A DNA stretch of 64,000 nt from Vicinamibacterales bacterium (lineage in GTDB: Bacteria > Acidobacteriota > Vicinamibacteria > Vicinamibacterales > UBA2999): the NCBI GenBank assembly GCA_035711805.1, contig DASTBV010000113.1, positions 348 to 64,347 of the forward strand, written 5' to 3'. The translations under genes and the position numbers were made by a program. Below are positions 28,363 to 57,524 of the stretch, in pieces. How positions within the stretch are numbered: position 1 is the first letter of the stretch; every line of letters begins with the position of its first letter. The notes beneath the pieces are model-generated. The model was not told where the DNA came from. It did not search any database and saw nothing but the letters and a program-made list of their open reading frames with translations.

Positions 28363-28441
28363 GGCATGCAGACTTCGTCAAGGTGACACGGACGGCGATG
28401 AACAGCACGTCGTCGTGTGCGGTGCGGTAGATTGGGGAGCG

Positions 28442-29284: not shown

Positions 29285-29330
29285 TCGTCAACGTCTCGAA
29301 CGATTCGCACCACTCGAACGACTCGAACGT

Positions 29331-31829: not shown

Positions 31830-31887
31830 GGAAACCCTGAGGCCTTGGCCCTTGGGCGTTGGCCCTTCGGCCTTCTATGATGGGGGG

Positions 31888-38684: not shown

Positions 38685-38761
38685 GGACGATAGGAATCAT
38701 TAGCCGGGACGATAGGAATCATTAGCCGGGTTTGCGCGCGCCTCGTTGACGGAATGCTGCT
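38685..38761. repeat. copy B of the 55-bp block with an internal 22-bp tandem duplication; candidate ori-like IS91 end
   Basis: ACGATAGGAATCATTAGCCGGG occurs twice in tandem (38687-38708, 38709-38730), then TTTGCGCGCGCCTCGTTGACGGAATGCTGCT. Lies 178-254 nt downstream of the transposase stop. Confidence 0.85.
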
Positions 38762-38938: not shown

Positions 38939-40576
38939 TCAGGGCGCCGGCACGTCCTCGTCGTAGCACAGATCCGCCCGGCCGAGTGGAAGCGGCGGCG
39001 GTCGTGCGGGCCGGGGCGTGGACACCTCAGCGGGCACGCCGAGATGACCGAGGATGCGCCGGATCACGGTCGGGTCTTCGATGAGGGCGATCAGCTCGAG
39101 GCGATCGCCGCAGCGCGGACACGCGAGGACGTCGAAGCCGAAGCTCCGCTGCATCAGCTCCGCCCACAACCGGTTCGTGCGCGGCGGGCCGGGCGGCGCC
39201 CTGTGCGAGGACGACTCCCCTGCTCCGCGCGCATCGGCGTCGGCGACCGCGGGGTCGCCCTCGCGCGGCCGCAGCCGCGACCGCCACGCCGACCGTGCGC
39301 CGAGCACACCGTAATACAGCACGAGATTGATCCGCGGGCGCGGCGTGAGCGCCGCAAGCCGTTCGAGCAGCTCCACCGGCTCGAAGAGCAGCCGTGTGGT
39401 CCCATCCGCCCACCGGTGCCGCAGATCGAGCAGCACCTGCCCGTCCGTGGTCAGATGCAGCCGCTCGGCCGCGATCGGCGGGCGTAGCGCATAGCGACAC
39501 AACCGCTCCAGCCGCGCCCGGTCCCGCGGCGGCACGACGACGCCGGCATGGAGATCGAAGCCGTTGCCCCGCGCGTGACAGGGGCCGCGCCCGGACGGCG
39601 CCAGCGCCAGCAGGTTCGCCGAGGCGCCACAGCGGCGCACCGCCGCACCGGCCCGCTCCCCGAGCGCCTGCCGTCCCTGCACGGAGGCGCCGGCGATCCC
39701 GGCCAGCCCGGCCTCTTCCCGCCATGGATCCGCGGCGCTCCCCTCGCCGAGATCGTCCAGCACGCCGCGCCGGGCCAGCAGACGATGGAGGCGGCGGTCG
39801 ATCGTCTGGAGCAGCCGGTCCATCTCGTCGTCGGTCGGCGACGTCGCCTCGTCGAACCACAGCGTCCCATCCTCCGCCTGGCTGTACACGCCGTCGAGCA
39901 CGAGCGCATGGACGTGGATATTCAGATTCAATGCGGCACCGAACCGCTGGATGATCGCCACGGCTCCACCCCGACCACCAGGCATCCCCCGCCGCGGCGA
40001 ACGCCGCCGCAGATCGCCAAGCACTGCCCGCACGAAGACGCCCGAGACCGCGCGGCAGAGCGGATGGTCCCATGCCAGCACGTAGCGCAGGCGGTGCGGC
40101 AGACTCAGCACCCACTGTCGTACTGGCACGATCGGAAAGACGTCATCGACCAGATGCGCGGCACGCTCAGCCATCCGCCGACCGCCACAGCTCGGACAGA
40201 CCGCACGCCCCTTACAGGAAAACGGCACGAGGCGGTCGAGCCTGCACCGGCCGCACTGAAACCGCGCGAAGCCACCCGCGGGGTGTCCGCAGCGCAGGAA
40301 GTCCCGGAACTCCTCCTCGATGAACCGCGGCAACGCGTCCCGTTCGTAGGTGCGTGTCGCCTCGGCGCGGAACGTCTCGAAATGATCGCGGACGACCTGA
40401 TACAGCACGCCCTGGGCAGGCGCCTTCAGGCTGTAGTCCGGGGACGGGCGGCCTATGCCCCGGACGGCGCGAAGCTCGCGCCACCGGCACCGAGCGCCGA
40501 TTGTCGCGAAGATTCGCAGAGTCTCCGCCGTGCGTTCACTGGTGGTTGCAGATTCTGCGTACCGGGCTGAGCCCAC
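38939..40576 (-). CDS. IS91-family transposase
   Basis: LYQVVRDHFETF.., Zn-binding block FQCGRCRLDRLVPFSCKGRAVCPSCGGRRMAERAAHLVD, VRQWVLSLP.., HVHALVLDGVY, YYGVLGARSAWR, and C-terminal CPRCGDRLELIALIE. The true start may be internal, near GVLYQVV. Confidence 0.8.
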   Translation of the reverse strand: MGSARYAESATTSERTAETLRIFATIGARCRWRELRAVRGIGRPSPDYSLKAPAQGVLYQVVRDHFETFRAEATRTYERDALPRFIEEEFRDFLRCGHPAGGFARFQCGRCRLDRLVPFSCKGRAVCPSCGGRRMAERAAHLVDDVFPIVPVRQWVLSLPHRLRYVLAWDHPLCRAVSGVFVRAVLGDLRRRSPRRGMPGGRGGAVAIIQRFGAALNLNIHVHALVLDGVYSQAEDGTLWFDEATSPTDDEMDRLLQTIDRRLHRLLARRGVLDDLGEGSAADPWREEAGLAGIAGASVQGRQALGERAGAAVRRCGASANLLALAPSGRGPCHARGNGFDLHAGVVVPPRDRARLERLCRYALRPPIAAERLHLTTDGQVLLDLRHRWADGTTRLLFEPVELLERLAALTPRPRINLVLYYGVLGARSAWRSRLRPREGDPAVADADARGAGESSSHRAPPGPPRTNRLWAELMQRSFGFDVLACPRCGDRLELIALIEDPTVIRRILGHLGVPAEVSTPRPARPPPLPLGRADLCYDEDVPAP

Positions 40577-40599
40577 CAGTCACAGAATCTGCGACGGTG

Positions 40600-40925
40600 C
40601 TGCGTGGCAGGGCGCCGGGCGCCGCAGGTGCATCGACATCGCCGACCGGCTCGCGGCGATCGCCAGCACCGCACGCTCCGCACGGGTCGCGCGCCGCAGG
40701 GTCGCCGAAGTGGCGCAGGATCGCCGCGCGCAGGCAGCCGGCGGTCTGGGCATACGCAATCATCGGCGCAGCATGGACGACAGCCTCGATGTCGGCGCCG
40801 ATCGATCCCCATGCCTTCGGCATCACAGCAAGCACGTCGCGCCCTCGAGCACGGCACTGATCACATCTTCCTGACCTGGGCGGAACGACGCGTGCCCGAA
40901 GCGCCGCCGAAGCGGATCGGCCTTA
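40600..40925 (-). pseudogene. recQ: recQ helicase remnant (N-terminal motif fused to Zn-finger region, frameshifted, no start)
   Basis: My translation gives ..RRRFGHASFRPGQEDVISAVLEG, then a 1-nt frame break, then DVLAVMP. This is followed directly by ..MIAYAQTAGCLRAAILRHFGDPAARDPCGACG (RecQ Zn-binding region). The helicase core is missing. Confidence 0.55.
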
Positions 40926-42024: not shown

Positions 42025-42722
42025 CCCTTGCGTGCCTTTTCGCTCGCCTTCCCCGCGTCGCCGCCTTCGGGCGCCTTCTCTTCTCCCTGCAACGGCACGT
42101 AGATCTGGAAGCCTTTCGTCGTCGTCGCCTCCGACGGGGCACCACTCTCACCGAGGTCCATGCCCTGCTCCGGCTGTTCCGAGGGCGGCCGGCGGCCCTT
42201 GGCAATCTCGTCACGGAGACGCACGACGTACTCGTAGTTGTACGCGGCTTCCTCATGCCAGACGTTGTTCTTCAGGACGGTCATGTAGCCATTGGCGACT
42301 TCGTTCAGCACCTGGATTGCGGCATTTCGCTCGGTAACGCCCTTGAGGCCGTTCCGGAACGCCGCGTTCGCGACGACGAGCTGGAGCTCGACGTTGGATT
42401 CGTCAACGGCCGCGACCGGTTCGGCCTGCGCCGGCAGGACCGCCGCGTAGTCGCCCTGCCAGTACTGGAGCGCCGCTTCCCGCGCCCGGACTTCCCTGAC
42501 GGTCTCCTCGCCAAGCTTCGGCACCCACTGCGCGTAGCGAAGGTAGCCCTGTGCATCGTCGAGGCTGGCCCGTGCCAGCGCGTATTGCTGCGTCGACGAT
42601 CGCTCCTGTGCGTCGGCCAGCGAGCGCTCGAGGCGCGCCGCGGTGAGGGCCACGACACCGGCCGCGAAGAAAACGGCGGCGGCGACGAGATAGGCGGTCA
42701 CGCTCTTCACAGGTTCCTCCAA
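42021..42722 (-). CDS. hypothetical membrane-anchored protein of the MoxR/vWA operon
   Basis: One N-terminal TM (AYLVAAAVFFAAGVVALTAA), a helical middle and an acidic/lysine-rich tail. Overlaps the next gene by 4 nt. Confidence 0.5.
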   Translation of the reverse strand: MEEPVKSVTAYLVAAAVFFAAGVVALTAARLERSLADAQERSSTQQYALARASLDDAQGYLRYAQWVPKLGEETVREVRAREAALQYWQGDYAAVLPAQAEPVAAVDESNVELQLVVANAAFRNGLKGVTERNAAIQVLNEVANGYMTVLKNNVWHEEAAYNYEYVVRLRDEIAKGRRPPSEQPEQGMDLGESGAPSEATTTKGFQIYVPLQGEEKAPEGGDAGKASEKARKG

Positions 42723-42735
42723 CTTTTTCCGGTGT

Positions 42736-42829
42736 TAACCACGAAGACACGAAGGGATCGAAGATCACGAACAACACGTTTGCTGTTCTTCTTCGTGCCC
42801 TTCGATCTCTTCGTGCCTTCGTGTTACGG
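42736..42829. repeat. micro-repeat palindrome with CACGAAG / CTTCGTG units
   Basis: CACGAAGA CACGAAGG GATCGAAGAT CACGAA..loop..TTCTTCGTG CCCTTCGATC TCTTCGTG CCTTCGTG. Arms are about 80 percent complementary. Confidence 0.85.
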
Positions 42830-43915
42830 GAACGTCCGAAACACCCCAAAGCTCAATTTCAACAACGCCGCGGTCAGCCACAATGCGGTGGCGACGAGCG
42901 CATATCCCGCATAGCGCGGCCGCTGCACGCTGTACTCACGCACGTCGATCCGGCCCGGCGACAGGCGGTCGATCTCGCGCAGCGTGCGGCGCATCGATTC
43001 CTCGTCGTATACCGCGTAGAAGCGTCCGCCGGTGCGCTCGACGGTCGGCCGCCAGATCTTGTCCTGCACCACTTCGCCTTCGCGGCGGTTGTAGGCGGTG
43101 CGCACCATGTGCACAGGGATCTTCCAGGTGCGCGCCTCGGCGATCAGGTTCTCCACCGGCCGGCCCTTCGGCTGTAGATCCGAGTCGCGGCCGTCCGTGA
43201 AGACGACCATCAGATTGCCGGACGCGTTGATGAACGAAAACGTCTTGAACAGCTTTGTCGCCTGCTCGATCCCCTCGACGATCGTCGTGCCCCAGTCGCT
43301 GAAACGGCCCCACTCGCGCGGGTCGCTCACCAGCCGGATGCTGAGGAGGATGTTCTCGTAATCCGTCGTGAAGGGGGTGACGACGTACGCCTGGTTGCCG
43401 AACTGAATCAACGCCACGAGATCGCGATAGGGTCCGTTCATCCGCCGCTTGATGAACTCCTCCGCGCCTGCAGTTGCCGTGAAGAACGTGGCCTCTCCCT
43501 GCGTCTTCATGCTCTCGGTCTTGAACTGCATCACCATGCTCGTGGATGCATCGACGAGCAGCGCAATGCGGCGGCCAGGATAGGACACCTCCTCGCGCGT
43601 GAAGCCGGTGTGCGGATCGGCCAGTGCGACGCCGAAAAACGGCAGGCCGGCGACGAACAGCAGCAAGGGCAGGTGCCGTGCCAGCGCGAGCGGCGAGCGG
43701 CGCATCTCCGGCAACAGCGCCGGCAGCGTCACATGGGTCCGCCCGGCGCGCGTGCCGAGCATCGCGCGGACGAAGAGCACGAGCACGGCAATCGCCGCGA
43801 GCACGACGAACACCAGCAACGCGGTCCGTGCGTCCGCAAACTGCAGATCGCCCCAGCGTGTACGCAGCCATTCGTCGAATGTGTTGCGAAGCGCGATGAC
43901 GAAGGCCTCGGTCAT
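42824..43915 (-). CDS. vWA domain membrane protein (BatA-like)
   Basis: TMs, then MIDAS RRIALLVDASTSM. Confidence 0.75.
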   Translation of the reverse strand: MTEAFVIALRNTFDEWLRTRWGDLQFADARTALLVFVVLAAIAVLVLFVRAMLGTRAGRTHVTLPALLPEMRRSPLALARHLPLLLFVAGLPFFGVALADPHTGFTREEVSYPGRRIALLVDASTSMVMQFKTESMKTQGEATFFTATAGAEEFIKRRMNGPYRDLVALIQFGNQAYVVTPFTTDYENILLSIRLVSDPREWGRFSDWGTTIVEGIEQATKLFKTFSFINASGNLMVVFTDGRDSDLQPKGRPVENLIAEARTWKIPVHMVRTAYNRREGEVVQDKIWRPTVERTGGRFYAVYDEESMRRTLREIDRLSPGRIDVREYSVQRPRYAGYALVATALWLTAALLKLSFGVFRTFP

Positions 43916-43923
43916 AGGGCAAA

Positions 43924-43961
43924 TTCAGAATTCAGAATGCAGAATTCAGAATTCTGCATTC
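43924..43961. repeat. heptamer array TTCAGAA x4 ending in a perfect 13-bp stem
   Basis: TTCAGAA TTCAGAA TGCAGAA TTCAGAA TTCTGCATTC. GAATGCAGAATTC-a-GAATTCTGCATTC spans 43935-43961 and overlaps the upstream gene's stop. Confidence 0.9.
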
Positions 43962-45207
43962 ATGCCGCCGATCCCGCACGCGTCGGCATGGACGGAACTG
44001 CGGCGCCGCGGGCGGCGCCAAACGGAATCAGCGAGCGGAGCCAGAGCCGGCGCACCGGGGCGGCGGCATTGTCGACCGCCGTACTGAGTGCAACGGTGTC
44101 GGCCTCCCCGGCGCGTCCATATACCGCGGTGCTGAACAGCTGCAGCGCTTCGAGAATGGGCTGCAGGGTCTCCCGCGACGCAGCGCCGCTGCTGGTCTCG
44201 ATCGCGGCCATGAGCGCCGCGGGAGTCGTGGCAGCCGACAGGAGCACGCGCTTGCGCCGCAGCAGTCCGGATCGCACCTCGATCTGCCCGACGCGTCCGG
44301 ACGCGACGTTCGTCACGTGCCGCTGCGCCACGCGGCGGCCGAGCGCTACCGCGCCGGCGATTCGAAGGGCGGCGACAGCTTGGGACATCAGCGCGGGCGT
44401 CCACCCGTCGCGCGCGGCGTCGCTGCGGGCGCTGCGCAGCGCGGCCATCGCGCCGCGCAGCACGGTGGCGGCAGGAAGCGGACGAACAACCTTCGCGCCG
44501 CGCACGCGGAACCGGCCGGCAAGCCGTACCAGCGCCAGAGCGGCCAGCACACCCGCAAACGCGAAGGCAATCGAGGCACCCACGATCGCGGCCGTGGCGC
44601 GGTTGCGCCGCGATTCGACGTTGGCGAACGTCTGGCCCGAGGCGTCGCGGATATCAGCGGCGCTGCGCGGGACGATCGACAGCACCCGCATCGGCAGCGG
44701 CGGCAGCACGTAGGTCTGATCGCGTCCTTCCGAGCTCCCGGTCGTACCCGCGGCCTGCAGGTTGTAGGTGACCGTCAGCGACGGGATGTTGACGTCCTGG
44801 CCGAAGAAGCCCTCGCTCAGCAGGCGCATCGCGTACTCGTACTGGATATACCGCCACGGCGGCGCGACGACATCCTCGTGGCGGTTGCCGGCCACGGCCT
44901 CGAACGGTGTCAGCGAAATCGCACCCGGCTCGAGCTGATTGACCGCCGGCACGACCTTGATGTTCGGCGTTTCGATGACGCCGCAGGTCAACACCAGGGT
45001 GAAGCGCTCGCCGACGCGAATGGCGCTGCGATCCGCTTTCCACCAGCAGCGGATTGGATCCGATTCAACCTCTCCGGGTCGGGGCGCGCGCTTCGTCTGC
45101 GCATGCGTGGGCACCGCGCCGAGGAGGACGACCACGAGGGCGAAGCAGAATCGGTGTCGCATGAGCGTTGGGATTTGGGGTTTGGGATTTGGGATGTGGG
45201 ATTTCAT
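43960..45207 (-). CDS. BatD-like / hypothetical secreted membrane-anchored protein
   Basis: ATG 45207 abuts the DUF58 stop (TAAATG); the alternative start is ATG 45162. Signal peptide ..FCFALVVVLLGAVPTHAQ and one C-proximal TM. The first 15 codons are encoded by an 8-bp repeat. Confidence 0.5.
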   Translation of the reverse strand: MKSHIPNPKPQIPTLMRHRFCFALVVVLLGAVPTHAQTKRAPRPGEVESDPIRCWWKADRSAIRVGERFTLVLTCGVIETPNIKVVPAVNQLEPGAISLTPFEAVAGNRHEDVVAPPWRYIQYEYAMRLLSEGFFGQDVNIPSLTVTYNLQAAGTTGSSEGRDQTYVLPPLPMRVLSIVPRSAADIRDASGQTFANVESRRNRATAAIVGASIAFAFAGVLAALALVRLAGRFRVRGAKVVRPLPAATVLRGAMAALRSARSDAARDGWTPALMSQAVAALRIAGAVALGRRVAQRHVTNVASGRVGQIEVRSGLLRRKRVLLSAATTPAALMAAIETSSGAASRETLQPILEALQLFSTAVYGRAGEADTVALSTAVDNAAAPVRRLWLRSLIPFGAARGAAVPSMPTRAGSAA

Positions 45208-46128
45208 TTACATCTTCCGTAGCCGCCGCTCGGCGGTGAACTCCACGAGCGCGGTTTCCATCTGCCACCGGTCCAGGCCGACGCGGACGACGTCGAGCCC
45301 TGATGCGCGCGCGAGCGCCTCAATGCGATCCTGCCAGGCGCCGACCCGGTCCGCGAGCCGCCGCAGTTCGCGGCGCGACAGCACCCGCGTTCGGCCGCTC
45401 TCGACGTCGTACGCCTCGACCCACCCGTCCGCCACGGCGGGCAGCTGATACGCGAAGCGCACGTCGGCAAGCACCAGAAACACGTCGTGCACGGCGTTCA
45501 GCAGCGCCATCTCCTGAACGAGCCGCTGCGCATCAGGAAACAGAAAGTCCGAAATCACCGGGACCAGCGACGCTTTCCGCAGCTGGCTCTCGATGGCCAC
45601 GATGATGTCGCGGCGTTCCTCGTCGGGATCGATGGTCCGGCGATTCTGATAGAGGTCAAGGCAGTACAGCAGATGCGAGCGGCCGATCCGCGGGCGCGCC
45701 GACGCGAGCTGCTGGAACTGATCGTCGAACGTGACCAGGCCGAACAGGTCCTGGAAGAACATCGCCGACAGCCCGGCCGCCGCGACCGCCCGCGCGATGG
45801 CGGCGGCGATCGGCACCCCGTGCACGCCGCAGCGCGTGGAGAGCGACGCGTCGGCCACCGCCACGATGGTGGCATTGCTGTCCTGTTCGAAATCGCGGGT
45901 GATCATCGGGCTGAAGTTCGTCATCGACGACTGCGCCCAGTCGATCGACGACATCCGATCGCCGGGCTCCCAGTCGCGCACGCCGACGAAGTTGAAGCCG
46001 CTCCCCTTGAACACGCTGGCGTGGTCGCCGAGCGTGAACTCCTTCATGCGCTTGATGATGAACAGTTCGATTTCCGCGATCTCGCGGAGGTTGACGAGCG
46101 GTTCCTCCGCAACTCCCAACCCGGTCAT
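45208..46128 (-). CDS. DUF58 family protein
   Basis: ..VRDWEPGDRMSSIDWAQSS.. and a vWA-like ..IVAVADASLS... Classic partner downstream of MoxR. Confidence 0.8.
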   Translation of the reverse strand: MTGLGVAEEPLVNLREIAEIELFIIKRMKEFTLGDHASVFKGSGFNFVGVRDWEPGDRMSSIDWAQSSMTNFSPMITRDFEQDSNATIVAVADASLSTRCGVHGVPIAAAIARAVAAAGLSAMFFQDLFGLVTFDDQFQQLASARPRIGRSHLLYCLDLYQNRRTIDPDEERRDIIVAIESQLRKASLVPVISDFLFPDAQRLVQEMALLNAVHDVFLVLADVRFAYQLPAVADGWVEAYDVESGRTRVLSRRELRRLADRVGAWQDRIEALARASGLDVVRVGLDRWQMETALVEFTAERRLRKM

Positions 46129-47165
46129 GGCACCGGGACGCGATCGACGATGTCGTCGACCACCATTTCAACGGTGACGCCGTGGCTTGCGGCGTGGGGT
46201 CCGAGCCAGACGCGGTGGCTGAGGATGTAGCGCGCGAGCTCCTGCACGTCCTCCGGATAGACCTCGGTACGGTGGTGCATCAACAGCGCCCACACTTTGA
46301 CCAGCCGGCCCCAGACGATCGTCGCCCGCGGCGAGGCGCCGAGGTCGACGCACTTCTCGACCAGCTCGGAGGGCGACCGATGGTGCCATTCACTTTCGGC
46401 ACTGTAGGGCCGTGTCGCGCCCACCAGGCGCCGGATGTACTTGGCGATTGACTCGTGGAGGAACACCTCGCGCGTGATCACCGACCGCAGCTCGATGATC
46501 CGTTCTTTCGGGATGAGCGGCTTGAGCCGCACCTGCTTGAAGTCGAAGCTCACCAGCTTCTCTTCCTCCGACGGGGGCAGGTAGGCGATGTTGATCATGA
46601 TCGCGAAGCGATCCGTCGCCGCCTCGGAGAGCGGAAACGTCCCCTGCCCCAGCTCCACCGGGTTCATCGTCGCAATGGCAAAGCTGAACGGCGCCAGCTC
46701 GTAGGTCGTTTTGCCGACCGTGACCGTGCGGTCCTGCAGTCCTTCCAGAAACGCGCTCTGCGATTTGAGCGGGATGCGGTTGATCTCGTCGAGCAGGATG
46801 ACCTCTGCCGACGCCAGCGGACCGAACTCGGTGATGAATTCGCCCGTCGCCGGGTTGATCATCTGGAAGCCGACGATCTCGGTCGGCTGCAGATCGGCGC
46901 GGCCCTGCAGGCGCGCGAACTTGGCGTTGCTGATGGCCGCGAGGATGACGCCGAAGAACGTCTTGCCCACGCCGGGGACGCCGCGGAGCAGCAGATTGCC
47001 GGCGTTGACCTGCCGCTTCTGATCCTTGTCGTAGGTCGTCGGTATCTCGGAGAGCAGCACGACGTTCGCGAGCGCCTTCTCCGTGTCGTATCCGACTAAC
47101 GCGTTTCCCGCCTCGGCGACGATCGCTTCGTGCAGATCGATGGATTCCTGGAGCTCCGGATGCAT
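46125..47165 (-). CDS. MoxR-family AAA+ ATPase
   Basis: Track ORF 46125..48641 trimmed to ATG 47165 (MHPELQESI..). Walker A LLRGVPGVGKT, Walker B VILLDEINR, ..ATMNP... The upstream part of the track ORF is antisense to the MFS gene. Confidence 0.9.
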   Translation of the reverse strand: MHPELQESIDLHEAIVAEAGNALVGYDTEKALANVVLLSEIPTTYDKDQKRQVNAGNLLLRGVPGVGKTFFGVILAAISNAKFARLQGRADLQPTEIVGFQMINPATGEFITEFGPLASAEVILLDEINRIPLKSQSAFLEGLQDRTVTVGKTTYELAPFSFAIATMNPVELGQGTFPLSEAATDRFAIMINIAYLPPSEEEKLVSFDFKQVRLKPLIPKERIIELRSVITREVFLHESIAKYIRRLVGATRPYSAESEWHHRSPSELVEKCVDLGASPRATIVWGRLVKVWALLMHHRTEVYPEDVQELARYILSHRVWLGPHAASHGVTVEMVVDDIVDRVPVP

Positions 47166-47192
47166 GAACCGTGAATCATACCTGATGGATCT

Positions 47193-47220
47193 GTGGCTTC
47201 CGCCGTACGGCGGAAGGCCA
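47193..47220. repeat. perfect 12-bp-stem hairpin in the divergent moxR / MFS spacer
   Basis: GTGGCTTCCGCC-gtac-GGCGGAAGCCAC. The word is related to 7103-7128. Confidence 0.85.
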
Positions 47221-47273
47221 CCAGCAGGCGGACGCGACGAGTCCGCGAGTGTGGTACCGTGCCGCCGCGCCCC

Positions 47274-48569
47274 ATGGTCTCGACGACGAGCCACCCGCAC
47301 GCAACGGGCTCCGTCCGTACGGTTGCCTTTGCCAGCCTGATTGGAACCACCATCGAGTGGTACGACTTCTTCCTTTACGGCACGGCGGCGGCGCTCGTCT
47401 TCAACCGCCTGTTTTTCCCCACCTCCGATCCGCTCACCGGCACGCTGTATTCCTTCGGCACCTACGCGGTCGGGTTCGTTGCGCGTCCGTTTGGCGGCAT
47501 CATCATCGGCCACTACGGCGACCGGATCGGCCGCAAGTCGATGCTCGTGCTCACGCTGGTCGTGATGGGCGTCGCGACCTTTCTCATCGGCCTGCTGCCG
47601 ACCTATGAGCAGATCGGTCCGTGGGCGGCGGTCGCCCTCGTCCTGCTGCGCGTGGCGCAGGGGTTCGGCGTCGGCGGCGAGTGGGGCGGCGCCGTGCTCA
47701 TGGCCGTCGAGCACGCGCCGCGCACCGCCCGCGGCTTCTACGGCAGCTGGCCGCAGGTCGGCGTCCCCGCGGGCCTCCTCTTGTCCACGGCCGTGTTCAC
47801 CGCGTTCTCCTGGCTGCCCGAGGATCAGTTCCTGGCGTGGGGATGGCGCGTGCCGTTCCTGCTCAGCATCGTCCTCGTCGGCATCGGCCTGGTCATCCGG
47901 CTGCGGATCCTCGAGACGCCCGCATTCCTGCGCATCAAGACGCAGGCGGGCGCCGCGCGGCAGCCGATCCTCGAAGTGCTCCTCCGCTACCCGAAGCAGG
48001 TGCTGCTCGCGATGGGCGCGCGATTCGCGGAAAACGGCGCGTTCTACATCTTCAGCGTCTTCGTGCTGACCTACGCGACGCAGCGCGCCAACGTCGATCG
48101 GCAGCTGGTCCTGAACGGGATCCTCCTCGGATCGGCGGTTGAGCTCGCCGCGATTCCGTTTTTCGGCGCGCTGTCGGATCGCATCGGACGACGGCCCGTC
48201 TACCTGTTCGGGGCGGTGATGACCGCGGTCATCGCGTATCCGCTGTTCCTTGCGCTCGATCGGGGAGCGGCCACGCCCATTGCGCTGGCCTTGATTGCCG
48301 CATTCACGCTCTCGCATGGCGCCATGTACGCGCCGCAGGCGGCGTTCATGTCCGAGCTGTTCGACGCGCGGGTGCGTTACAGCGGCGCGTCGCTGGGCGC
48401 ACAGCTGGCCTCGGTATTCGCCGGCGGGCTGGCGCCCTTCGTCGGCACCAGCCTGCTTCAAGCCGGCTACGGCCGCGGCGCCGTGACGCTCTACGTCGTC
48501 GGCCTGGCCCTGGTGACGATCGTCGCGGTACTTGCCGCCAGCGAGACCCACCGGTCGGAGGTGGACTAG
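47274..48569 (+). CDS. MFS transporter, metabolite:H+ symporter (MHS) family
   Basis: Trimmed to ATG 47274. ..GTTIEWYDFFLYGTAAALVF.. and GHYGDRIGRK are MHS signatures. 12 TMs. Confidence 0.85.
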   Translation: MVSTTSHPHATGSVRTVAFASLIGTTIEWYDFFLYGTAAALVFNRLFFPTSDPLTGTLYSFGTYAVGFVARPFGGIIIGHYGDRIGRKSMLVLTLVVMGVATFLIGLLPTYEQIGPWAAVALVLLRVAQGFGVGGEWGGAVLMAVEHAPRTARGFYGSWPQVGVPAGLLLSTAVFTAFSWLPEDQFLAWGWRVPFLLSIVLVGIGLVIRLRILETPAFLRIKTQAGAARQPILEVLLRYPKQVLLAMGARFAENGAFYIFSVFVLTYATQRANVDRQLVLNGILLGSAVELAAIPFFGALSDRIGRRPVYLFGAVMTAVIAYPLFLALDRGAATPIALALIAAFTLSHGAMYAPQAAFMSELFDARVRYSGASLGAQLASVFAGGLAPFVGTSLLQAGYGRGAVTLYVVGLALVTIVAVLAASETHRSEVD

Positions 48570-48654
48570 AACTCGGAACAGAACCTGTGAACACGAACCC
48601 GGAAGCGAGAACCTGGAAATGTGAACCGCCGCGCGGATCAATAATCGTCATCGC

Positions 48655-49761
48655 ATGGATCTGATGCGCGCGGCCGTCCTCGAGAGCGCCCCGGGCGGGT
48701 TGCACATCGAGGAGATTCCAATTCCCGAACCCGGCCGGGGAGAGATTCTCGTCCGCGTCGCCGCGTGCGGCGTCTGTCACACGGACCTGCACGTGATGAA
48801 GGCGGAAGTGGCGTTTCCGACGCCGGCGGTGATGGGCCACGAAATCACCGGCACGGTGGCGGCACTTGGTCCGGGCGTCACGGGCCCGGCGGTCGGAACC
48901 GATGTCGCCTGCGCGTTCATCATGCCGTGCGGCTTCTGCGCGGCGTGCGGCGCCGGACGCGACGACCTCTGCGACAACTTCTTCGCGATGAACCGGCTGA
49001 AGGGAACGTTGTACGACGGGACCTCCCGTCTCCGGCGCAGGAACGGCTCCCCCCTGGCGATGTATTCGATGGCCGGCCTCGCAGAGTATTCCGTGGTCCC
49101 GGCAACCGACGTCTTCCCCCTTGCTCCGGGACTGCCGCTGGCCGAATCGTCCGTGCTCGGCTGCGCGATCTTCACGGCCTACGGTGCGGTGAGGCACGCC
49201 GCGGAACTGCGCGGCGGCGAACGCATCGCCGTGGTCGCGTCCGGAGGGGTCGGGATCAACATCGTCCAGATCGCACGCGCGTTTGGCGCCTCGCAGATCA
49301 TCGCCGTCGATGTGCGCGCCGACAAACTGGATGCGGCGAAACGCCTCGGCGCCACCGACGTCGTCAACGCGCGCGAGGTCGATGCGGTGTCACGGGTCCG
49401 CGAGCTGACCGGCGGACGCGGTGTCGACGCGGCGTTCGAGGTCCTGGGCCTTCCGCAGACGTTTACTCAGGCGTTCGAAATGATCCGCGACGGCGGCCGC
49501 ATGATCGGCGTCGGCATCGCGCCGGTGAAGGCGACGGCAGCCATCGAGATCACGCGGCTGGTGCGGCGGGAACTGCGCATCATCGGTTCCTACGGCGCGC
49601 GCACGCGCACGGATATGCCGGAGATCATCCGTCTCGCCGCGCAGGGAATCTTCCGGCCCGAGACAATCGTGACCGAGCGGTTCCCGCTCGCCGAGGCGGA
49701 TACGGCGTATCAGGCCCTGGCGCGGGGTGAAATCGTGGGACGCGCCATCGTCGTTCCCTGA
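48655..49761 (+). CDS. zinc-dependent alcohol dehydrogenase family oxidoreductase
   Basis: GEILVRVAACGVCHTDLH.., GHEITG.., Rossmann VVASGGVGIN. Confidence 0.85.
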   Translation: MDLMRAAVLESAPGGLHIEEIPIPEPGRGEILVRVAACGVCHTDLHVMKAEVAFPTPAVMGHEITGTVAALGPGVTGPAVGTDVACAFIMPCGFCAACGAGRDDLCDNFFAMNRLKGTLYDGTSRLRRRNGSPLAMYSMAGLAEYSVVPATDVFPLAPGLPLAESSVLGCAIFTAYGAVRHAAELRGGERIAVVASGGVGINIVQIARAFGASQIIAVDVRADKLDAAKRLGATDVVNAREVDAVSRVRELTGGRGVDAAFEVLGLPQTFTQAFEMIRDGGRMIGVGIAPVKATAAIEITRLVRRELRIIGSYGARTRTDMPEIIRLAAQGIFRPETIVTERFPLAEADTAYQALARGEIVGRAIVVP

Positions 49762-49780
49762 AACGCAAACAGGAGAGGTT

Positions 49781-49846
49781 GCCACGGAGGCACGGAGACA
49801 CGGATCATTTGAAATCGCTTTCTCCGCGGTTCCGTGTCTCCGTGGC
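49781..49846. repeat. CACGGAG/CTCCGTG micro-repeat palindrome, copy 2
   Basis: GCCACGGAGGCACGGAGACACGGA-tcatttgaaatcgctt-TCTCCGCGGTTCCGTGTCTCCGTGGC. Lies in the adh|mmsA spacer. Confidence 0.9.
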
Positions 49847-49861
49847 GTTTAAGGATCGTCC

Positions 49862-51340
49862 ATGCTCGTAGAAACAATGCTTCACAACTACATCGGCGGA
49901 ACGTGGGAAGCCGCGCGCGCGACCGAGTCGATTGCGGTCACCAACCCGGCGACGGGAGAGGTGATCGCTCAGGTGCCCTTGTCGTCGCGTGACGACGTCG
50001 CGAATGCGGTGAAAGCGGCGGCCGGCGCGCTGCCGGCGTGGCGCCGCACGCCGGCGGGCGATCGCATCCAGCCGCTGTTCAAGCTCAAGGCCCTGCTCGA
50101 CGAGAGCTTCTCGGACATCGCGCGGCTGATCACGCAGGAATGCGGCAAGACCCTCGCCGAGGCCGAAGGCGAGCTGAGACGCGGGATCGAAAACGTCGAG
50201 GTGGCGAGCGGAATTCCGTCGCTGATGATGGGTTCCAACCTCGAAGACATCGCCTCCGGGATCGACGAGCTGATGATCCGTCAGCCGGTCGGCGTCGTCG
50301 CCGTCATCACGCCGTTCAATTTCCCCGGAATGATTCCGCTCTGGTTTCTGCCGTATGCGATTGCGTGCGGCAACACGCTCGTGTTGAAGCCGTCCGAAAA
50401 GACACCGCTGACGATGGCGCGTGTCATGCAGCTGGTCGAGAAGGCCGGAGTGCCACAGGGAGTCGTCAATCTGGTTCACGGCGGCAAGGACGCGGTCGAC
50501 GCACTGCTCGATCATCCGGAGGTCCGTGCGATTTCGTTCGTCGGCTCGACGCCCGTCGCGCGCTACATCTACAGCCGCGCGGCCGCCAACGGAAAGCGCG
50601 TGCAGTGCCAGGGCGGAGCCAAGAACCCGATCGTCGTCCTGCCGGATGCCGACCTCGACATGACCACGAAGATCGTCGCGGACTCGGCGTTCGGATGTGC
50701 CGGACAGCGCTGCCTGGCTTCGTCGGTCGTCATCACCGTGGCGGATGCGGCAAAGCCGTTTACCGAGCGCATCAGCGAAGCGGCCACCTCCCGGAAAGTC
50801 GGCTACGGCCTCGAGCCGGGCACCGAGATGGGCCCTGTCATTTCCGGCGACAGCCGGACCAGGATCGAGGCGCTGATCGCCCAGGGCATCACCGGCGGCG
50901 CGAAGCCGGTCGTGGATGGCCGTAATGCCCGAGTCAGCGGATACGAGAAAGGCCACTTCATCCGCCCGACCGTCCTGGACGACGTCGATCCCGCCGGGGA
51001 GCTGGCACGTACGGAAGTCTTCGGCCCCGTGCTCAGCATGATGCGCGTGGATTCGATCGAGGATGCGATCGACCTGGTCAACCGATCTGCCTACGGGAAT
51101 ATGGCGTGCCTGTTCACGAGCAGCGGTGCCGCCGCGCGGCAGTTCCGCTACGAGGCGCGCGTGGGCAACGTCGGCATCAATGTCGGCGTGGCCGCGCCGA
51201 TGGCCTACTTCCCCTTCTCCGGCTGGAAGGAAAGCTTCTTCGGCGACCTCCACGCCCAGGGTCGCGACGCGATCGACTTCTACACGGAAAAGAAGATCGT
51301 CGTCGAACGATGGCCGGCGAACTGGAGCCGTAAGTTCTGA
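49862..51340 (+). CDS. mmsA: CoA-acylating methylmalonate-semialdehyde dehydrogenase
   Basis: Aldehyde dehydrogenase fold with ..[10 protein letters not shown].. (catalytic Cys) and the MmsA-type C-terminus ..[13 protein letters not shown]... Confidence 0.85.
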
Positions 51341-53109
51341 TGTGGCAACGCGCCGCAATCGCGGCGGTTGCCGTGGCTGCGGCTGTCGCGTTGTCGATTC
51401 CGGCGATCCGTTACTTCAGTAAGGAACCTCCGCCGCTACCGTCGGCCGTTCGCCTGTCGCTTGCACCCCCGGATGGCACGGAGCTCGGCGCCGGAGACGA
51501 CGTGCTCGATGCGGCCCTCTCTCCCGATCAGCAGGAGTTGGTGTTCGTCGCCAGGCTGGTTCGTCGCAACGACGCCGGCGCCCCCCCAGGTTCAACTCAG
51601 CTGTGGCGCCGGCGGTTCGACGCACAGACCGCGGTAGCGCTGGCCGGAACCGATGGCGCCCGCCTTCCGGCGTGGAAGCAGACGGGCAACGTGGTGTCGT
51701 TCTTCAGCGAAAACCGGCTGAAGCTTCTGAATTTGGAGACGGGCATTGTCGCAGATGCGGGCGCGGCTCCCTCACCCGCGGGCGCCACGTGGCTGCGCGA
51801 CGGTTCGCTGCTGTTCGTCCCCGGACCTGGACCCGTCCGGCGCTTGCTCGACGGCCGGATCAGCGATGCCACGCGCCTCCCCCCGGGCGATGTCGCGCAC
51901 GCGTTTCCGGTCGCGGCGCCAGGCGGTCAGGAGTTCACCTACGTGGCGGTTCGCGGCGATGGACGACGAGTGGTGCGACTACGTGCAGGCGAAACCGAAA
52001 CGGATCTCGGCATGACGGGCACACACGCCGAACTGCTCGATCGGTGGCTGCTGTTCGTCAGGGATACCACGTTGCTCGTGGACTACCGCGGCGATGATGG
52101 CCGGATGGGCGGGCACGATTTCCCGCTCGCGCTCGACGTCGGAGCGACTGAACGCGCTCGCGGCATGTTCGCTGCGTCCGCGGACATGCTCCTTCACGCA
52201 CCGGCCGGTGAACACCGGCGCCAGATCACCTGGCTCGATTTGGCAACTGGACGAACCGGGACAGTGGGGGACGCCGGCGACTTCTGGCAAATCCGCGTGT
52301 CGCCTGATGACCGCAGCCTCGCCGTCACGGCGCGGGATCCGCTGCTCGGTTCACTCGACGTCCTGAACATCCCGGTCGACGATCAGGCCGCGGCGCTGCG
52401 GTTGACGACGTCGATCGCCGCCGACAGCGACCCGGTGTGGTCGCCGGATGGCCGGCGGATCGCCGTCCGTTCCATGCAGCGCGGGCGGCCTGAAGTGCTG
52501 GTCATGCCGGCGGCGCTTCAAGCCGCGGCGGACAGGCCCGACAGCGCGTCGGCGGCCGCCATGACGGGGGATTTGCCCACGGACTGGCGCGCCGGTGAAA
52601 TGCTGGTGCAACGACGCGCGGCCGGCGGCTGGGATCTCGTGCGCGTGCAGGCGACCGGCCCGTCCCGGGTTGTTGCCGACTCTCCGTTCAATGAAACGGA
52701 TGGCCGCTGGTCACCCGATGGCCGTTGGACGGCTTACGTGTCCGACGAGCCAGGCCAGCCGGAAATCTACGTCCACAACGAACATGGCGATCGTCAACGC
52801 ATTTCTCAGGGCGGCGGGACCCACCCCCGGTGGACGCGAGATTCGCGAGCACTGTTGTTCCTCCGCGAATCGATGCTCATGCGCGCCGAGCTGGGGTCGG
52901 GAGGCTCGCGGTTCGGCACGCCTCGCCGACTTGTCAATTTCGCTGGCATTCGCGATTTCGATCTCGCCCGCACGCAGACCGACCGCATCTTCACCCTGAT
53001 GCCCGTCCAACCGAATCGACGCGAAACCGTGTCTGTAATTCTGAACTGGCGATCGCTCGCGGAAGCGCAGCGGCGCCGGTTGGCGAGCAAGACGCCGCCG
53101 AAGTTCTAG
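51340..53109 (+). CDS. TolB-like PD40 beta-propeller protein, N-terminally membrane anchored
   Basis: ATG overlaps the mmsA stop (TGATG). Repeated ..SPDGR.. blades (DSDPVWSPDGRRIAV, GRWSPDGRWTAYVSD..PEIYV). Confidence 0.65.
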   Translation: MWQRAAIAAVAVAAAVALSIPAIRYFSKEPPPLPSAVRLSLAPPDGTELGAGDDVLDAALSPDQQELVFVARLVRRNDAGAPPGSTQLWRRRFDAQTAVALAGTDGARLPAWKQTGNVVSFFSENRLKLLNLETGIVADAGAAPSPAGATWLRDGSLLFVPGPGPVRRLLDGRISDATRLPPGDVAHAFPVAAPGGQEFTYVAVRGDGRRVVRLRAGETETDLGMTGTHAELLDRWLLFVRDTTLLVDYRGDDGRMGGHDFPLALDVGATERARGMFAASADMLLHAPAGEHRRQITWLDLATGRTGTVGDAGDFWQIRVSPDDRSLAVTARDPLLGSLDVLNIPVDDQAAALRLTTSIAADSDPVWSPDGRRIAVRSMQRGRPEVLVMPAALQAAADRPDSASAAAMTGDLPTDWRAGEMLVQRRAAGGWDLVRVQATGPSRVVADSPFNETDGRWSPDGRWTAYVSDEPGQPEIYVHNEHGDRQRISQGGGTHPRWTRDSRALLFLRESMLMRAELGSGGSRFGTPRRLVNFAGIRDFDLARTQTDRIFTLMPVQPNRRETVSVILNWRSLAEAQRRRLASKTPPKF

Positions 53110-53663
53110 GCGTCGTAGTACCAGTCGACGATCGTGTCGCGCGTGCCATTACGAACCTCGGTCACTTCGTGAAGGGCGTCTGCGGGAAACGCGATCAGGA
53201 GGCCTGGCTCGGGAACGACGTCGATGATTCCGTCCGGCAGATGCAGCCGCAGGATTCCCCCGTCGAAGTCGCCCCCGGCTCCCGATGCGCGTGAGGCGTT
53301 GAGGAAAAGCACAAGGGCGGCAGCCCTCCGCGCGGCCGGCTGCCACTGCGGGTCGTGCCCGCGATCGCGATGCCGTCGGTAGAAGCCTCCCGCCGGATAC
53401 CGGATAAACCCTGCGCCTTCGCGCTCACCGAGCGAGAGGCCAAGCGCCTCCGCTACACGATCCCGGCATCCCTCGAGCCTGGCCTCGACGTCGCGCGCGA
53501 GGTTCCCCGCTGGCTCGACGAGGCTGGCAACCCTGACCTGCGTGTCGCGCTGGATGCCGCCGGCAAGGACCTCGGCCGGTTCGACCTCGCCGGCGTCCAT
53601 TCCGCGGCGAATCTCAACGCATTGGGCCGGTGTCAGCAACCCCGGCAACCTGAATACCTGCAT
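53106..53663 (-). CDS. 2OG-Fe(II) oxygenase (prolyl-4-hydroxylase-like)
   Basis: Trimmed to ATG 53663 (MQVFRLPGLL..). HxD in ..FYRRHRD.. and distal His in ..ADALHEVTEV... Confidence 0.7.
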   Translation of the reverse strand: MQVFRLPGLLTPAQCVEIRRGMDAGEVEPAEVLAGGIQRDTQVRVASLVEPAGNLARDVEARLEGCRDRVAEALGLSLGEREGAGFIRYPAGGFYRRHRDRGHDPQWQPAARRAAALVLFLNASRASGAGGDFDGGILRLHLPDGIIDVVPEPGLLIAFPADALHEVTEVRNGTRDTIVDWYYDA

Positions 53664-53720
53664 AAAGCCCCGGCAATCCCCTGTAATGAAACACCGTCCT
53701 CGCCTCAGCCGTATATGATG

Positions 53721-53740
53721 TCGAAGTGATATCACTTCGA
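53721..53740. promoter_or_regulatory. perfect 20-bp palindrome just upstream of the SPFH RBS; candidate operator
   Basis: TCGAAGTGAT|ATCACTTCGA, followed by GGAGGA (53745-53750) and ATG 53755. Confidence 0.5.
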
Positions 53741-53754
53741 TATTGGAGGACACG

Positions 53755-54630
53755 ATGACTCGTGAACGGTTGCGCCATGGGTTGCCTGGGATCCCCTTCC
53801 TGCTCGTCGCGTTTCTCGTGCTGGCGGGCATTGTCTGGGTGTTTCTGTCGGCCGTCGCCACGGAGGACCCCTCTGCGCCCCGTGTGCTGACCGCGGTGGG
53901 GCTGTTCATCGCCTGGGTATTCCTGATGACCGGATTCTTCATGGTCGCGCCGAACGAAGCCCAGGTGCTCCAGTTGTTCGGGGACTACGTTGGAACGGCG
54001 AAGACCACCGGCCTCCGCTATGCGAACCCGTTCTACAAGAAGCGGAAGCTGTCGCTGCGTGTGCGGAACTTCGAAAGCGGGCAGCTCAAGGTGAACGACA
54101 GCGAGGGCAACCCGATCGACATCGCCGCGGTCGTCGTATGGCGCGTGGTCGAGACCGCCGAGGCGACGTTCGAGGTGGACGACTACGAGCACTACGTGCA
54201 TGTGCAGAGCGAAGCGGCGCTCCGCAATGCCGCGACGAGCTATCCGTATGACTCGCACGAGGATCATGTCATGTCGCTGCGCGGTTCCACCGCGGCGGTT
54301 GCCGAGCACCTGAAGGCCGAAGTCCAGCAGCGGCTGGACAAAGCGGGCGTCGAGGTGCTCGAGGCGCGGATTAGCCATCTGGCCTACGCGCCCGAGATCG
54401 CGGCCGCGATGCTGCAGCGGCAGCAGGCCGGCGCGATCATCGCCGCGCGCCAGCGGATTGTCGAGGGTGCCGTCGGCATGGTGGAAATGGCGCTGCAGAT
54501 GCTGTCGCACAAGGGCATCGTCACGCTCGACGAGGAGCGCAAGGCGCAAATGGTCAGCAATCTCCTCGTCGTGCTGTGCGGCGAGAAGGCGGCGCAGCCG
54601 ATTGTGAACACCGGAACGATTCACCAGTAA
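53755..54630 (+). CDS. SPFH/band-7 domain membrane protein
   Basis: I prefer ATG 53755 with a GGAGGA Shine-Dalgarno over the track's TTG 53743. Two N-terminal TMs, then the SPFH core ..[14 protein letters not shown]....KVND..GNPI.....VVWRV... Confidence 0.8.
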
Positions 54631-54634
54631 CTCC

Positions 54635-54832
54635 GTGGCCGAACGGAAGCCCTTCCTTCTGCGGATCGACAGCGGAGTGCTGGACGCGGTGCAGCGCTGG
54701 GCGAACGACGATCTGCGCAGCCTGAACGCGCAGATCGAGTTCGTCCTGCGCGACGCGCTGCGCCGGGCCGGCCGGGCGCCCCGGTCCCGCCCCGACGAAA
54801 CCGCGCAGGAACCCGAAGACCGCGAAACATAA
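54635..54832 (+). CDS. ribbon-helix-helix (Arc/CopG-like) small DNA-binding protein
   Basis: GTG start 5 nt after the SPFH stop. KPFLLRIDSGVLDAVQRWANDDLRSLNAQIEFVLRDALRR has a beta-alpha-alpha pattern. Confidence 0.6.
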   Translation: MAERKPFLLRIDSGVLDAVQRWANDDLRSLNAQIEFVLRDALRRAGRAPRSRPDETAQEPEDRET

Positions 54833-54920
54833 CCCCTTCGCGCGCTTCGCGATCTTCGCGTTCTTCGCGGTAAAGGCCGGCGGGCCTACCGGTCGATCCA
54901 GATTTGCCGATAATTGCACC

Positions 54921-55904: not shown

Positions 55905-55939
55905 GAATCAGGCTGGTCCATCGGTTAGGCTGAAAGCAC

Positions 55940-56023
55940 GCGAAAGTGGCGGAACTGGCAGACGCGCCAGACTTAGGATCTGGTACCCGAAAGGGTATGG
56001 GGGTTCGAGTCCCTCCTTTCGCA
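55940..56023 (+). tRNA. tRNA-Leu (anticodon TAG), long variable arm, no encoded CCA
   Basis: Acceptor stem GCGAAAG/CTTTCGC plus discriminator A. Anticodon stem-loop CCAGA-CTTAGGA-TCTGG. Variable arm TACCCGAAAGGGTA. T arm GGGGGTTCGAGTCCCTC. Close to E. coli tRNA-Leu in overall pattern. Confidence 0.9.
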
Positions 56024-56040
56024 ATCAGTACCCGCCGACG

Positions 56041-56107
56041 GGCCACGGAGTCGCGGAGACACGGAGGTTCGTAAAGTTCTGGCTCCGTGGCTCCGTGTCT
56101 CCGTGGC
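56041..56107. repeat. CACGGAG/CTCCGTG micro-repeat palindrome, copy 3
   Basis: GGCCACGGAGTCGCGGAGACACGGAG-gttcgtaaagttctgg-CTCCGTGGCTCCGTGTCTCCGTGGC. Lies between tRNA-Leu and tig. Confidence 0.9.
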
Positions 56108-56120
56108 GCAGTGTCCTCCG

Positions 56121-57395: not shown

Positions 57396-57524
57396 CCCGC
57401 CGAACCCGTTGACGAACAATGATTTGCGTCACGTAGCGGGTCCGGGCGACGTCGCTTCCGAAGTCCACCAATCGCCATTCACGATTCGCCATACGATTCA
57501 CACATCGCTAATCACAAATCGTTG

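Follow-up and report, generated by a model that had tools for sequence, protein, structure and literature searches.

Many-worded intergenic heptamer repeats, direct and palindromic, in genomes of the Vicinamibacterales

How can neighbouring spacers of one bacterial genome carry hairpins of the same build when each seems to be spelled with a different sequence? The question arises from a stretch of 64,000 nucleotides (hereafter the window; contig DASTBV010000113.1, positions 348 to 64,347, of GenBank assembly GCA_035711805.1) from a soil bacterium of the Vicinamibacterales, whose ClpX is 99% identical to ClpX of Acidobacteriota metagenome-assembled genomes of that order. A first-pass annotation, made from the sequence alone, singled out an intergenic palindrome at 42736-42829 (more exactly, 42740-42823) with tandem CACGAAG units in one arm and CTTCGTG units in the other, and grouped it with four further spacers as a single geometry with its own unit at each locus. 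As a mobile element copying itself should keep its sequence, the changed unit was taken to suggest either local generation or selection on structure. We have compared the window with related loci and contigs (records, labelled here with L-numbers) in three sets, namely 80 clpX loci, each from a different species and syntenic for tig-clpP-clpX-lon-engB; 79 metagenome loci around the VWA gene next to the palindrome; and seven contigs encoding an identical VWA protein. The Vicinamibacterales DNA covered amounts to 1.8 Mb; matches to identical proteins extended the window itself by only ~0.8 kb. Many words (a word being the repeat unit sequence of an array) appear to be in use in each Vicinamibacterales genome, every one of them at several loci. 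The arrays are abundant, prefer a period of 7, are largely restricted to intergenic DNA, recur in their words, turn over quickly, are dispensable and lie downstream of genes.

The flagged palindrome belongs to a dispersed family and is not a one-off. Its members in the window are as follows:

42740-42823, no strand assigned: CACGAAG-type palindrome, a diverged copy within the CACGGAG family of palindromes
24041-24101, no strand assigned: CACGGAG(N) palindrome, three units per arm, between mreB and mreC
49783-49844, no strand assigned: CACGGAG(N) palindrome, three units per arm, in a co-directional spacer
56044-56113, no strand assigned: CACGGAG(N) palindrome, three units per arm, between tRNA-Leu (55940-56023) and tig, with an orthologous copy in L004
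61942-62012, no strand assigned: CACGGAG(N) palindrome between lon and engB, with an orthologous copy in L004

The two-arm palindrome described at the flagged locus is real. Its arms (42740-42774 and 42789-42823) are 35 nt each and 86% complementary around a 14-nt loop, and each contains about four units of 8-9 nt, in which CACGAAG is accompanied by one or two variable bases; Tandem Repeats Finder gives a period of ~8-9 and 3.8 copies. The RNA of 42723-42830 folds at -53.4 kcal/mol, compared with -25.2 +/- 3.5 kcal/mol in shuffles (z = -8.1, with 0 of 200 as good; here and below, z-scores compare RNA folding energy with 200 dinucleotide shuffles). The palindrome fills the spacer from the TAA stop of the VWA-domain gene (42824-43915, minus strand) to the ribosome-binding site of the next gene (GGAGGAA, with a GTG start, at 42720-42708), in a MoxR-DUF58-VWA ('Bat'-like) operon. 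An apparent TAAC repeat at 42740 is a mere extension of the palindrome. [quoted passage not shown]

The notion of a unit peculiar to each locus fails at this element, since palindromes of CACGGAG/CACGAAG units occupy four further sites and the window thus holds five CACGRAG loci within 64 kb. The impression of a different word at each locus arose because only 64 kb had been seen. Altogether, the CACGGAG family comprises 19 elements across 12 records (among them copies in L004, L100, L111, L125, L131 and L143), with conserved arms and unrelated loops. Alignment gives the consensus ACGRRC-(CACGGAG-N)x3, a variable loop, and (CTCCGTG-N)x3-GYYCGT, of which the flagged element is a G>A / C>T variant in all units, its arms having four units each. 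Bases at the N positions mostly do not pair (in 9 of 11 and 7 of 11 sequences), so that the stem consists of 7-bp helices split by single mismatches. The arms are ~90% conserved, whereas the loops (alignment columns 30-57) share no likeness in sequence or length, in orthologous and paralogous copies alike. This would mean hypermutable loops or else maintained arms; that loops vary so much because hairpin tips break and are repaired is conceivable, but speculative. Pairing was found in 85.0% of cells and still in 83.7% when partners were shuffled among sequences; arm pairing therefore follows from the shared consensus and not from covariation. The compensatory changes between arms that had been suggested as a sign of selected structure are almost absent, the few seen in this family being confined to the outer stem ACGRRC/GYYCGT. 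At the tig junction, a tRNA-Leu gene (anticodon TAG, 55940-56023) lies directly upstream of tig and the palindrome follows it after 20 nt, as is also the case in L004.

The other four spacers named alongside the flagged one proved to be of more than one kind:

22547-22617, no strand assigned: AACTCCC / TTGGGAR heptamer palindrome, from mreD to the next gene of the operon
59439-59520, no strand assigned: AGGCCTC / CTGAGGC heptamer palindrome, beginning at the stop of clpX and ending just short of the ribosome-binding site of lon
43922-43962, no strand assigned: AATTCAG direct array of 5.9 copies with a self-complementary unit, forming a weak hairpin
54836-54869, no strand assigned: CTTCGCGNN direct array of 3.8 copies after an Arc-like gene, not a palindrome

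The two-arm designs annotated as AACTCCC / GGGAGTT and GGCCTCA / CTGAGGC were upheld. In the former, AACTCCC x5.9 faces TTGGGAA (TTGGGAR) x3.6, with unequal unit numbers and 30-nt arms that are 80% complementary (z = -7.25); in the latter, AGGCCTC x4.4 faces CTGAGGC x4.3, with 30-nt arms that are 90% complementary (z = -7.5). The supposed TTCAGAA / TTCTGCA pair at 43922-43962 does form a hairpin, albeit a weak one (-16.9 kcal/mol, z = -3.1), but it is a single direct array, the unit of which is weakly self-complementary because GAATTC lies within it. At 54836-54869, where a CGCGAAG-like / CTTCGCG palindrome overlapping the stop of a ribbon-helix-helix gene had been described, there is only a direct array with a lone CCGCGAA upstream; its fold is no better than that of shuffles (z = +0.1; 102 of 200 fold as well), and it begins 4 nt past the stop codon of the Arc-like gene (54830-54832). 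The shared geometry therefore holds for three of the five loci, where arm complementarity lies far beyond that of the shuffled controls (z -7.3 to -8.1), and the remaining two are direct arrays. Tandem arrays as such are far from a chance property of these spacers: 17 arrays (period 6-9, at least 2.8 copies) occur in 7 kb of window spacers, as against 0.2 on average, and never more than 1, in dinucleotide shuffles.

A survey of 1.52 Mb (the window plus the 80 clpX loci; 202 kb intergenic and 1316 kb coding) shows that this holds across the lineage. Period-7 arrays number 146 in intergenic and 35 in coding DNA, or 0.72 versus 0.027 per kb, and a further 30 intergenic arrays have period 8 and 17 have period 9. 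An inverted partner, defined as two or more inverted units no further than 110 nt away, accompanies nearly half of the intergenic arrays (90 of 199, ~45%); the expectation by chance is well under 1%. The 146 period-7 arrays contain 98 distinct canonical heptamers, in agreement with the first impression of a common geometry with differing words. These words are nevertheless shared. Among pairs of loci separated by over 600 nt in a single record (each record covering part of a genome), 23 of 346 (6.6%) have exactly the same word, ~40 times chance; the controls give 0.6% for pairs between records and 0.12-0.17% when words are random or have their letters shuffled. Clustering of words by single linkage at one mismatch was too permissive, and the exact-word statistics were used instead. 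Furthermore, most of the window's words, among them AACTCCC, AATTCAG, AGGCCTC, AAGGCCC and CACGGAGN, are found again at non-orthologous junctions in other genomes. The changed word consequently loses its force as an argument against copying, the more so as the flagged element itself sits in a sequence-conserved, dispersed family.

Placement is equally distinctive. Palindromic arms occur at 0.68 per kb in co-directional, 0.48 per kb in convergent and 0.09 per kb in divergent spacers, a ~7-fold depletion in the last class; solo arrays are less depleted there (0.43 per kb, versus 0.76 and 0.71). Palindromic arrays fill essentially the whole of their spacers, the stop codon lying a median of 19.5 nt away and the next start 14.5 nt away. 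Unit counts of the two arms are often unequal (13.9/5.0, 8.6/4.9 and 3.0/8.6, for example), and arms pair no worse when the order of their units is permuted (0 of 24 elements at <=0.1); a permutation test for inverted duplication, of low power, gave no signal of variant units mirrored between arms. Related genomes carry anywhere from 0 to 13 arrays per ~21 kb, even where ClpX is 96-99% identical; L026-L028, L057 and the genome of the window are rich in arrays, and those of L008 and L061 are among the poor ones. In L057, one co-directional spacer (7594-7783) consists of four arrays, TCGGCYA x13, CTACTGA x4.5, TGCTTCC x3.4 and TGCCCCA x4.7, and the same record has GGGGCAT at four loci and GGGGATT, a Nostoc-type word, in ten copies.

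Orthologous spacers reveal how readily the elements are replaced. At the clpX-lon junction, at least 20 species have a hairpin with tandem-unit arms and the word differs each time, apart from related words in the near relatives L006/L007, L014/L017, L013/L015/L016 and L027/L039/L045; in 21 species the spacer is 25 nt or shorter. The lon-engB, tRNA-tig and clpP-clpX junctions follow the same pattern, and the lon-engB spacer is only 4-13 nt long in L006, L007, L010 and L011. Around the VWA gene, L089 (flanks ~94.6% identical in DNA, VWA protein 98% identical) is unlike the window at three of four operon junctions: four TTGGTAG units and a GTAG hairpin take the place of the CACGAAG palindrome, and a 73-nt palindromic array lies at the site where the moxR and DUF58 genes of the window overlap. 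The junction at 43922-43962 is represented by 8 nt in L090, by a 20-nt perfect palindrome in L156, corresponding to three units per arm in L089, and by an AATGCAA palindrome in L089 itself. CACGAAG palindromes recur at the VWA junction in L094 and in L111, the VWA protein of which is 69% identical, and L102 has a single arm of the palindrome present in L099 and L100.

Changes in unit number between orthologous spacers, which the first-pass annotation had proposed to look for, do occur. CTGAATT is present once in L090 and five times in the window, and TTGGTAG once in L093 and L163 and four times in L089 and L154, each series lying at the same junction in relatives whose flanking proteins are 91-98% identical. 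At closer range the arrays are constant: assemblies that are 98.7-99.9% identical in DNA, with an identical VWA protein, have identical arrays, and L088, of the same VWA protein, differs by one substitution. These contigs are too little diverged for a strain-level comparison to show constraint. The arrays at 42740, 43922 and 45168 are identical in five independent assemblies and are not an assembly artefact. At the moxR-DUF58 junction (46085-46160 of the window, minus strand; compare ~91-180 of L089), stop and start codons overlap in the window (ATGA), and L089, L096, L099 and L128 have palindromic arrays of 70-90 nt. The 3' arm of these arrays, TTGGGAG TTGGCAA TTGGGAA TTGGCAG, is an in-frame part of the DUF58 coding sequence and supplies its N-terminus, so arrays can invade coding ends and lengthen them.

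Selection on structure, one of the two explanations originally offered, is largely unsupported. Sense-strand G:U pairs are not in excess over A:C pairs (24 versus 37, p = 0.12, with an ungapped, energy-free aligner; an earlier count on stems folded without G:U gave 34 versus 65, with a possible loop-energy bias), solo arrays have no polarity relative to transcription (G>C in 44, C>G in 48), and pairing in the CACGGAG family comes from its consensus. Structure-free orthologous spacers in relatives, named beforehand as evidence against such selection, were found downstream of the VWA gene in L090 and L091, where flanking proteins are 94-97% identical. An intrinsic (Rho-independent) terminator, with a GC-rich stem, a 3-8-nt loop and a U-tract, does not describe the palindromes: a scan of 42100-62090 found no terminator-like sites at them and a total count equal to shuffle expectation, and no U-tract follows the stems, the tails of which read GGTTAACACC and TTCAAGGATC. 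Some hairpins lie inside operons that require read-through, mreBCD for example. In the window, the only match to Rfam 15 at the gathering score was the tRNA-Leu at 55940-56023. Some constraint does remain, since depletion from promoter spacers and the far better conservation of arms than of loops between species suggest a degree of maintenance.

Other classes of element were rejected by inspection. Integron attC sites do not suit core housekeeping operons, and the ends of the palindromes do not fit GTTRRRY; many words lack the GGA of CsrA sites or the GGAG of Shine-Dalgarno seeds; most have no G-run, as G-quadruplex repeats would require; and there are no spacers of the kind found in CRISPR arrays. 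A hairpin of a different type lies in the clpP-clpX spacer (58132-58183), with a perfect 19-bp stem and no tandem units (-30 kcal/mol, z = -6.2), followed by TTTCTTTTCA. It looks like a conventional attenuator or terminator and was missed by the simple terminator scan because its loop is 14 nt; the stem, AAACCGGGT...ACCCGGTTT, is recognisable in L002, L004 and L009.

Besides the loci above, the window contains the following arrays and one tagged hairpin:

17677-17751, no strand assigned: ACCTCTTGA direct array of 8.4 copies, filling a co-directional spacer
28435-28504, no strand assigned: GGGACCA/GGGATCA direct array, immediately 5' of a GTAG-tagged hairpin
28506-28530, plus strand: hairpin GTAG-A-GGCCGACC-TTTA-GGTCGGCC, resembling repetitive extragenic palindromic (REP) sequences, directly 3' of the heptamer array
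29290-29329, no strand assigned: AACGACTCG direct array of 4.4 copies in a co-directional spacer
31841-31874, no strand assigned: GGCCTTG array of 4.9 copies, the same canonical word as 55863-55894 (AAGGCCC) on the other strand
45168-45204, no strand assigned: TTGGGAT direct array of 5.3 copies (sense strand ATCCCAA), from the DUF58 gene to the next gene
55863-55894, no strand assigned: AAGGCCC array of 4.6 copies, running into the 3' end of a Dam-like methyltransferase open reading frame (ORF)

The direct arrays at 17677-17751, 28435-28504, 29290-29329, 45168-45204 and 55863-55894 are partnerless. The ATCCCAA array at 45168-45204 is C/A-rich and directly upstream of the start of a 400-aa gene, with orthologous junctions in L089, L093, L096, L113, L126 and L156. 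As no purine-rich ribosome-binding site is visible in this spacer, the array may act as an unstructured leader. The GTAG hairpin, in the form GTAG-A-GGCCGACC-TTYA-GGTCGGCC, is dispersed at differing loci in L089 (3509-3533), L093 (4096-4120 and ~5925), L103 (1683-1754), L142 (~791), L152, L154 and L163, and in two independent cases a heptamer array abuts its GTAG side (GGGAYCA in the window, TTGGTAG in L089 and L154). In the 2013 survey of GTAG repeats, the carriers were Proteobacteria, Cyanobacteria, Chloroflexi and the Planctomycetes-Verrucomicrobia-Chlamydiae (PVC) superphylum, and Acidobacteria were not listed (PMC3733652). An IS91-family transposase ORF (Pfam Y2_Tnp and Zn_Tnp_IS91; 38939-40576, minus strand) adjoins the operon of the flagged palindrome. 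A 330-nt stretch at the 5' end of this transposase region (40275-40604) is present in L082 and missing in the otherwise 99.8% identical L081, and is thus a strain-level indel. Longer direct repeats are found beside the transposase region at 38685-38730 (22 nt x2.1, 100% identical) and at 9836-9909 and 3307-3376 (24 nt x3.1 and 36 nt x1.9).

Among known repeats, the short tandemly repeated repetitive (STRR) sequences of cyanobacteria are intergenic, use several heptamer words per genome, stand in tandem at many dispersed loci and are of unknown origin; they have been described mainly as direct arrays. The Vicinamibacterales arrays are like them in having many words in dispersed tandem arrays and differ in phylum and base composition, although this likeness is by description only. 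The nearest described system is the GGGAATC repeat of Xanthomonas, together with the heptamers of Nostoc and Calothrix. Both GGGAATC and the GGGGA(T/C)T of Nostoc form tandem intergenic arrays of ~3-6 or more copies; GGGAATC has 70-75 cases of close convergent inverted arrays with stem-loop potential; and length and sequence vary between related species at a junction that is kept, with no known function (Rehm et al., 2015; PMC4692102, which also cites three Calothrix heptanucleotides). The likeness extends to head-to-tail units of ~7 nt, three or more copies, intergenic location and frequent inverted pairs, and words of this type (GGGACCA/GGGATCA, TTGGGAT, and GGGGATT in L057) are present in Vicinamibacterales. 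However, the Xanthomonas and Nostoc genomes each have one dominant G-rich word with G-quadruplex potential, whereas the words in use here run to dozens per lineage and mostly lack G-runs; and 83% of repeats are kept between Xanthomonas species, whereas junctions here are replaced at ~5% DNA divergence.

With REP and REPIN elements (Bertels and Rainey, 2011, PMC3116915; Di Nocera et al., 2013, PMC3733652), our elements share dispersal as extragenic palindromes downstream of genes, in co-directional or convergent spacers, and patchiness among strains; the conserved arms around a variable spacer also recall REPINs. REPs, by contrast, are single stem-loops of 20-40 nt with a GTAG/CGTC tag and a REP-associated tyrosine transposase (RAYT) as known or suspected mover, whereas the palindromic arrays span 60-120 nt, have arms of direct units, end in ACGRRC/GYYCGT or TAAC and lack the tag. 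The tag and the single small stem-loop are found together only in the separate hairpin at 28506-28530, a genuine GTAG-hairpin. The TAACTGA direct repeats of marine Beggiatoaceae, Cyanobacteria and Bacteroidetes (2-6 copies, nearly all intergenic; MacGregor, 2015, PMC4679880) are a single word with strong orientation bias immediately upstream of start codons, and one inverted case; the Vicinamibacterales arrays differ in having many words, no strand polarity and ~45% inversion. The literature searched contained no account of repeats of this kind from Acidobacteria or Vicinamibacterales. In sum, the elements are arrays of 7-9-nt units in transcribed downstream spacers, about half of them paired as complementary arrays with the potential for a 25-40-bp hairpin, and they resemble STRRs, the Xanthomonas GGGAATC repeats and REPs.

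On balance, we cautiously favour the view that these are non-coding repeat families of the STRR/REP kind, dispensable, varied in unit number by slippage and tolerated downstream of genes. A seed word or small hairpin would arrive in a spacer, or pre-exist there; slipped-strand mispairing with a strong preference for 7 nt would then alter the unit number on each arm separately, as is suggested by the graded series among relatives, the unequal arms and the un-mirrored variant units; whole elements are quickly lost or replaced; and copies in coding sequence or in divergent promoter spacers, from which arrays are observed to be depleted, would be purged by selection. If the elements influence the genes beside them at all, for instance by protecting mRNA 3' ends or by partly terminating transcription between cistrons, the influence would at most be modulatory. 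The local generation first proposed thus fares well as regards slippage and poorly as regards the independent invention of each word (6.6% sharing against 0.15%). A purely local birth, in which slippage amplifies any spacer sequence, snap-back or template switching inverts it and nothing moves between loci, would explain the diversity of words, the single-copy seeds in relatives where other genomes have arrays, the lone arm in L102, the four different arrays in a row in L057, and the moxR-DUF58 3' arm of L089, which expands local N-terminal coding sequence where the window has a single TTGGGAGTTG. It would not explain why the same word recurs within a genome at ~40 times chance and at non-orthologous junctions across genomes, or why the CACGGAG family is conserved in sequence across species, and the un-mirrored variant units, in a low-power test, run contrary to inverted duplication; we regard it as unlikely. 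Equally doubtful, in our estimation, is a more active process, by which some genomes of this lineage would build hairpins de novo at the DNA level, amplifying a small stem or word on both arms in 7-nt steps and spreading words to other spacers, with REP-like families born and replaced in real time, either through hairpin-stalled slippage or through an enzyme not yet known.

An improbable alternative is that the hairpins are selected as RNA, as U-tract-less terminators, attenuators or mRNA stabilisers, the repeat lattice being incidental. They are very stable (z -4.7 to -8.1), they follow genes, and divergent spacers are depleted of them. In E. coli, terminators follow clpX, lon and a tRNA gene, and hairpins occupy the corresponding junctions here, many species having one at clpX-lon and lon-engB with a word that differs each time; the few compensatory changes in the outer stem fit as well. 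Yet close relatives have no spacer at these junctions, more than half of the arrays are partnerless and cannot fold, T-tracts are absent after the stems, read-through operons such as mreBCD contain hairpins, G:U pairs do not exceed A:C pairs in either count, and consensus accounts for pairing in the CACGGAG family. Still less probable are REPIN-like elements moved by an HUH (RAYT-type) transposase, whether each word family has its own or shares one. The dispersed, genome-specific and patchily present families, the REPIN layout of conserved arms and variable spacers, the REP-like placement bias (PMC3733652) and the GTAG-tagged hairpins abutted by heptamer arrays in the same genomes are what this would predict. 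Against it, the palindromic arrays have neither GTAG nor CGTC as a tag, their arms are direct arrays and not small palindromes in themselves, there are too many families per genome for one enzyme each, the loops differ among copies so that recent transposition is not visible, and the only transposase seen in the window is the IS91-type Y2 enzyme, not a Y1 enzyme.

Several observations sit uneasily with the favoured view of dispensable, slippage-varied families. No mechanism was found for spreading a word between loci, and none of the 30 window ORFs (64 kb) scanned against Pfam is a REP-associated Y1 (RAYT) transposase. Recent copy-and-paste of whole elements is not visible, since the loops and flanks of same-word copies are unrelated. 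Slippage is evidently not rapid, as the arrays were stable at up to 1.3% divergence (one substitution and zero copy-number change in 5-8 assemblies), and the CACGGAG family, with a nearly fixed three units in each arm, does not resemble free slippage. Arms in this family are far better conserved than loops even though trigger factor is ~70% identical between the window and L004, and the ATCCCAA array is kept at its junction in relatives down to ~50% protein identity, sometimes as a palindrome. This arm conservation and ATCCCAA persistence point to constraint or to sequence-specific regeneration, neither of which a pure junk model predicts. The spacer statistics, moreover, rest on crude gene calls based on GC content at third codon positions (GC3).

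In summary, these elements are a robust, lineage-wide and many-worded variation on the known, poorly understood intergenic heptamer and REP-like repeats of bacteria. In practical terms, hairpins in core operons (mreBCD and clpP-clpX-lon) will confuse predictors of terminators and small RNAs, and are likely break points in short-read assemblies of soil Acidobacteria. Intergenic heptamers and REP-like palindromes have been known for decades, and there is no accepted account of their origin or spread. This lineage offers a natural experiment, with dozens of words, direct and inverted arrays side by side, graded copy series, turnover at ~5% divergence and near-empty sister genomes. If hairpins are actively built in some genomes, then the patchy density of arrays (0 to 13 per ~21 kb) would show which genomes have the factor behind them and which lack it; and a link between array density and some factor that generates or spreads these repeats, could one be established, would open their origin to testing.

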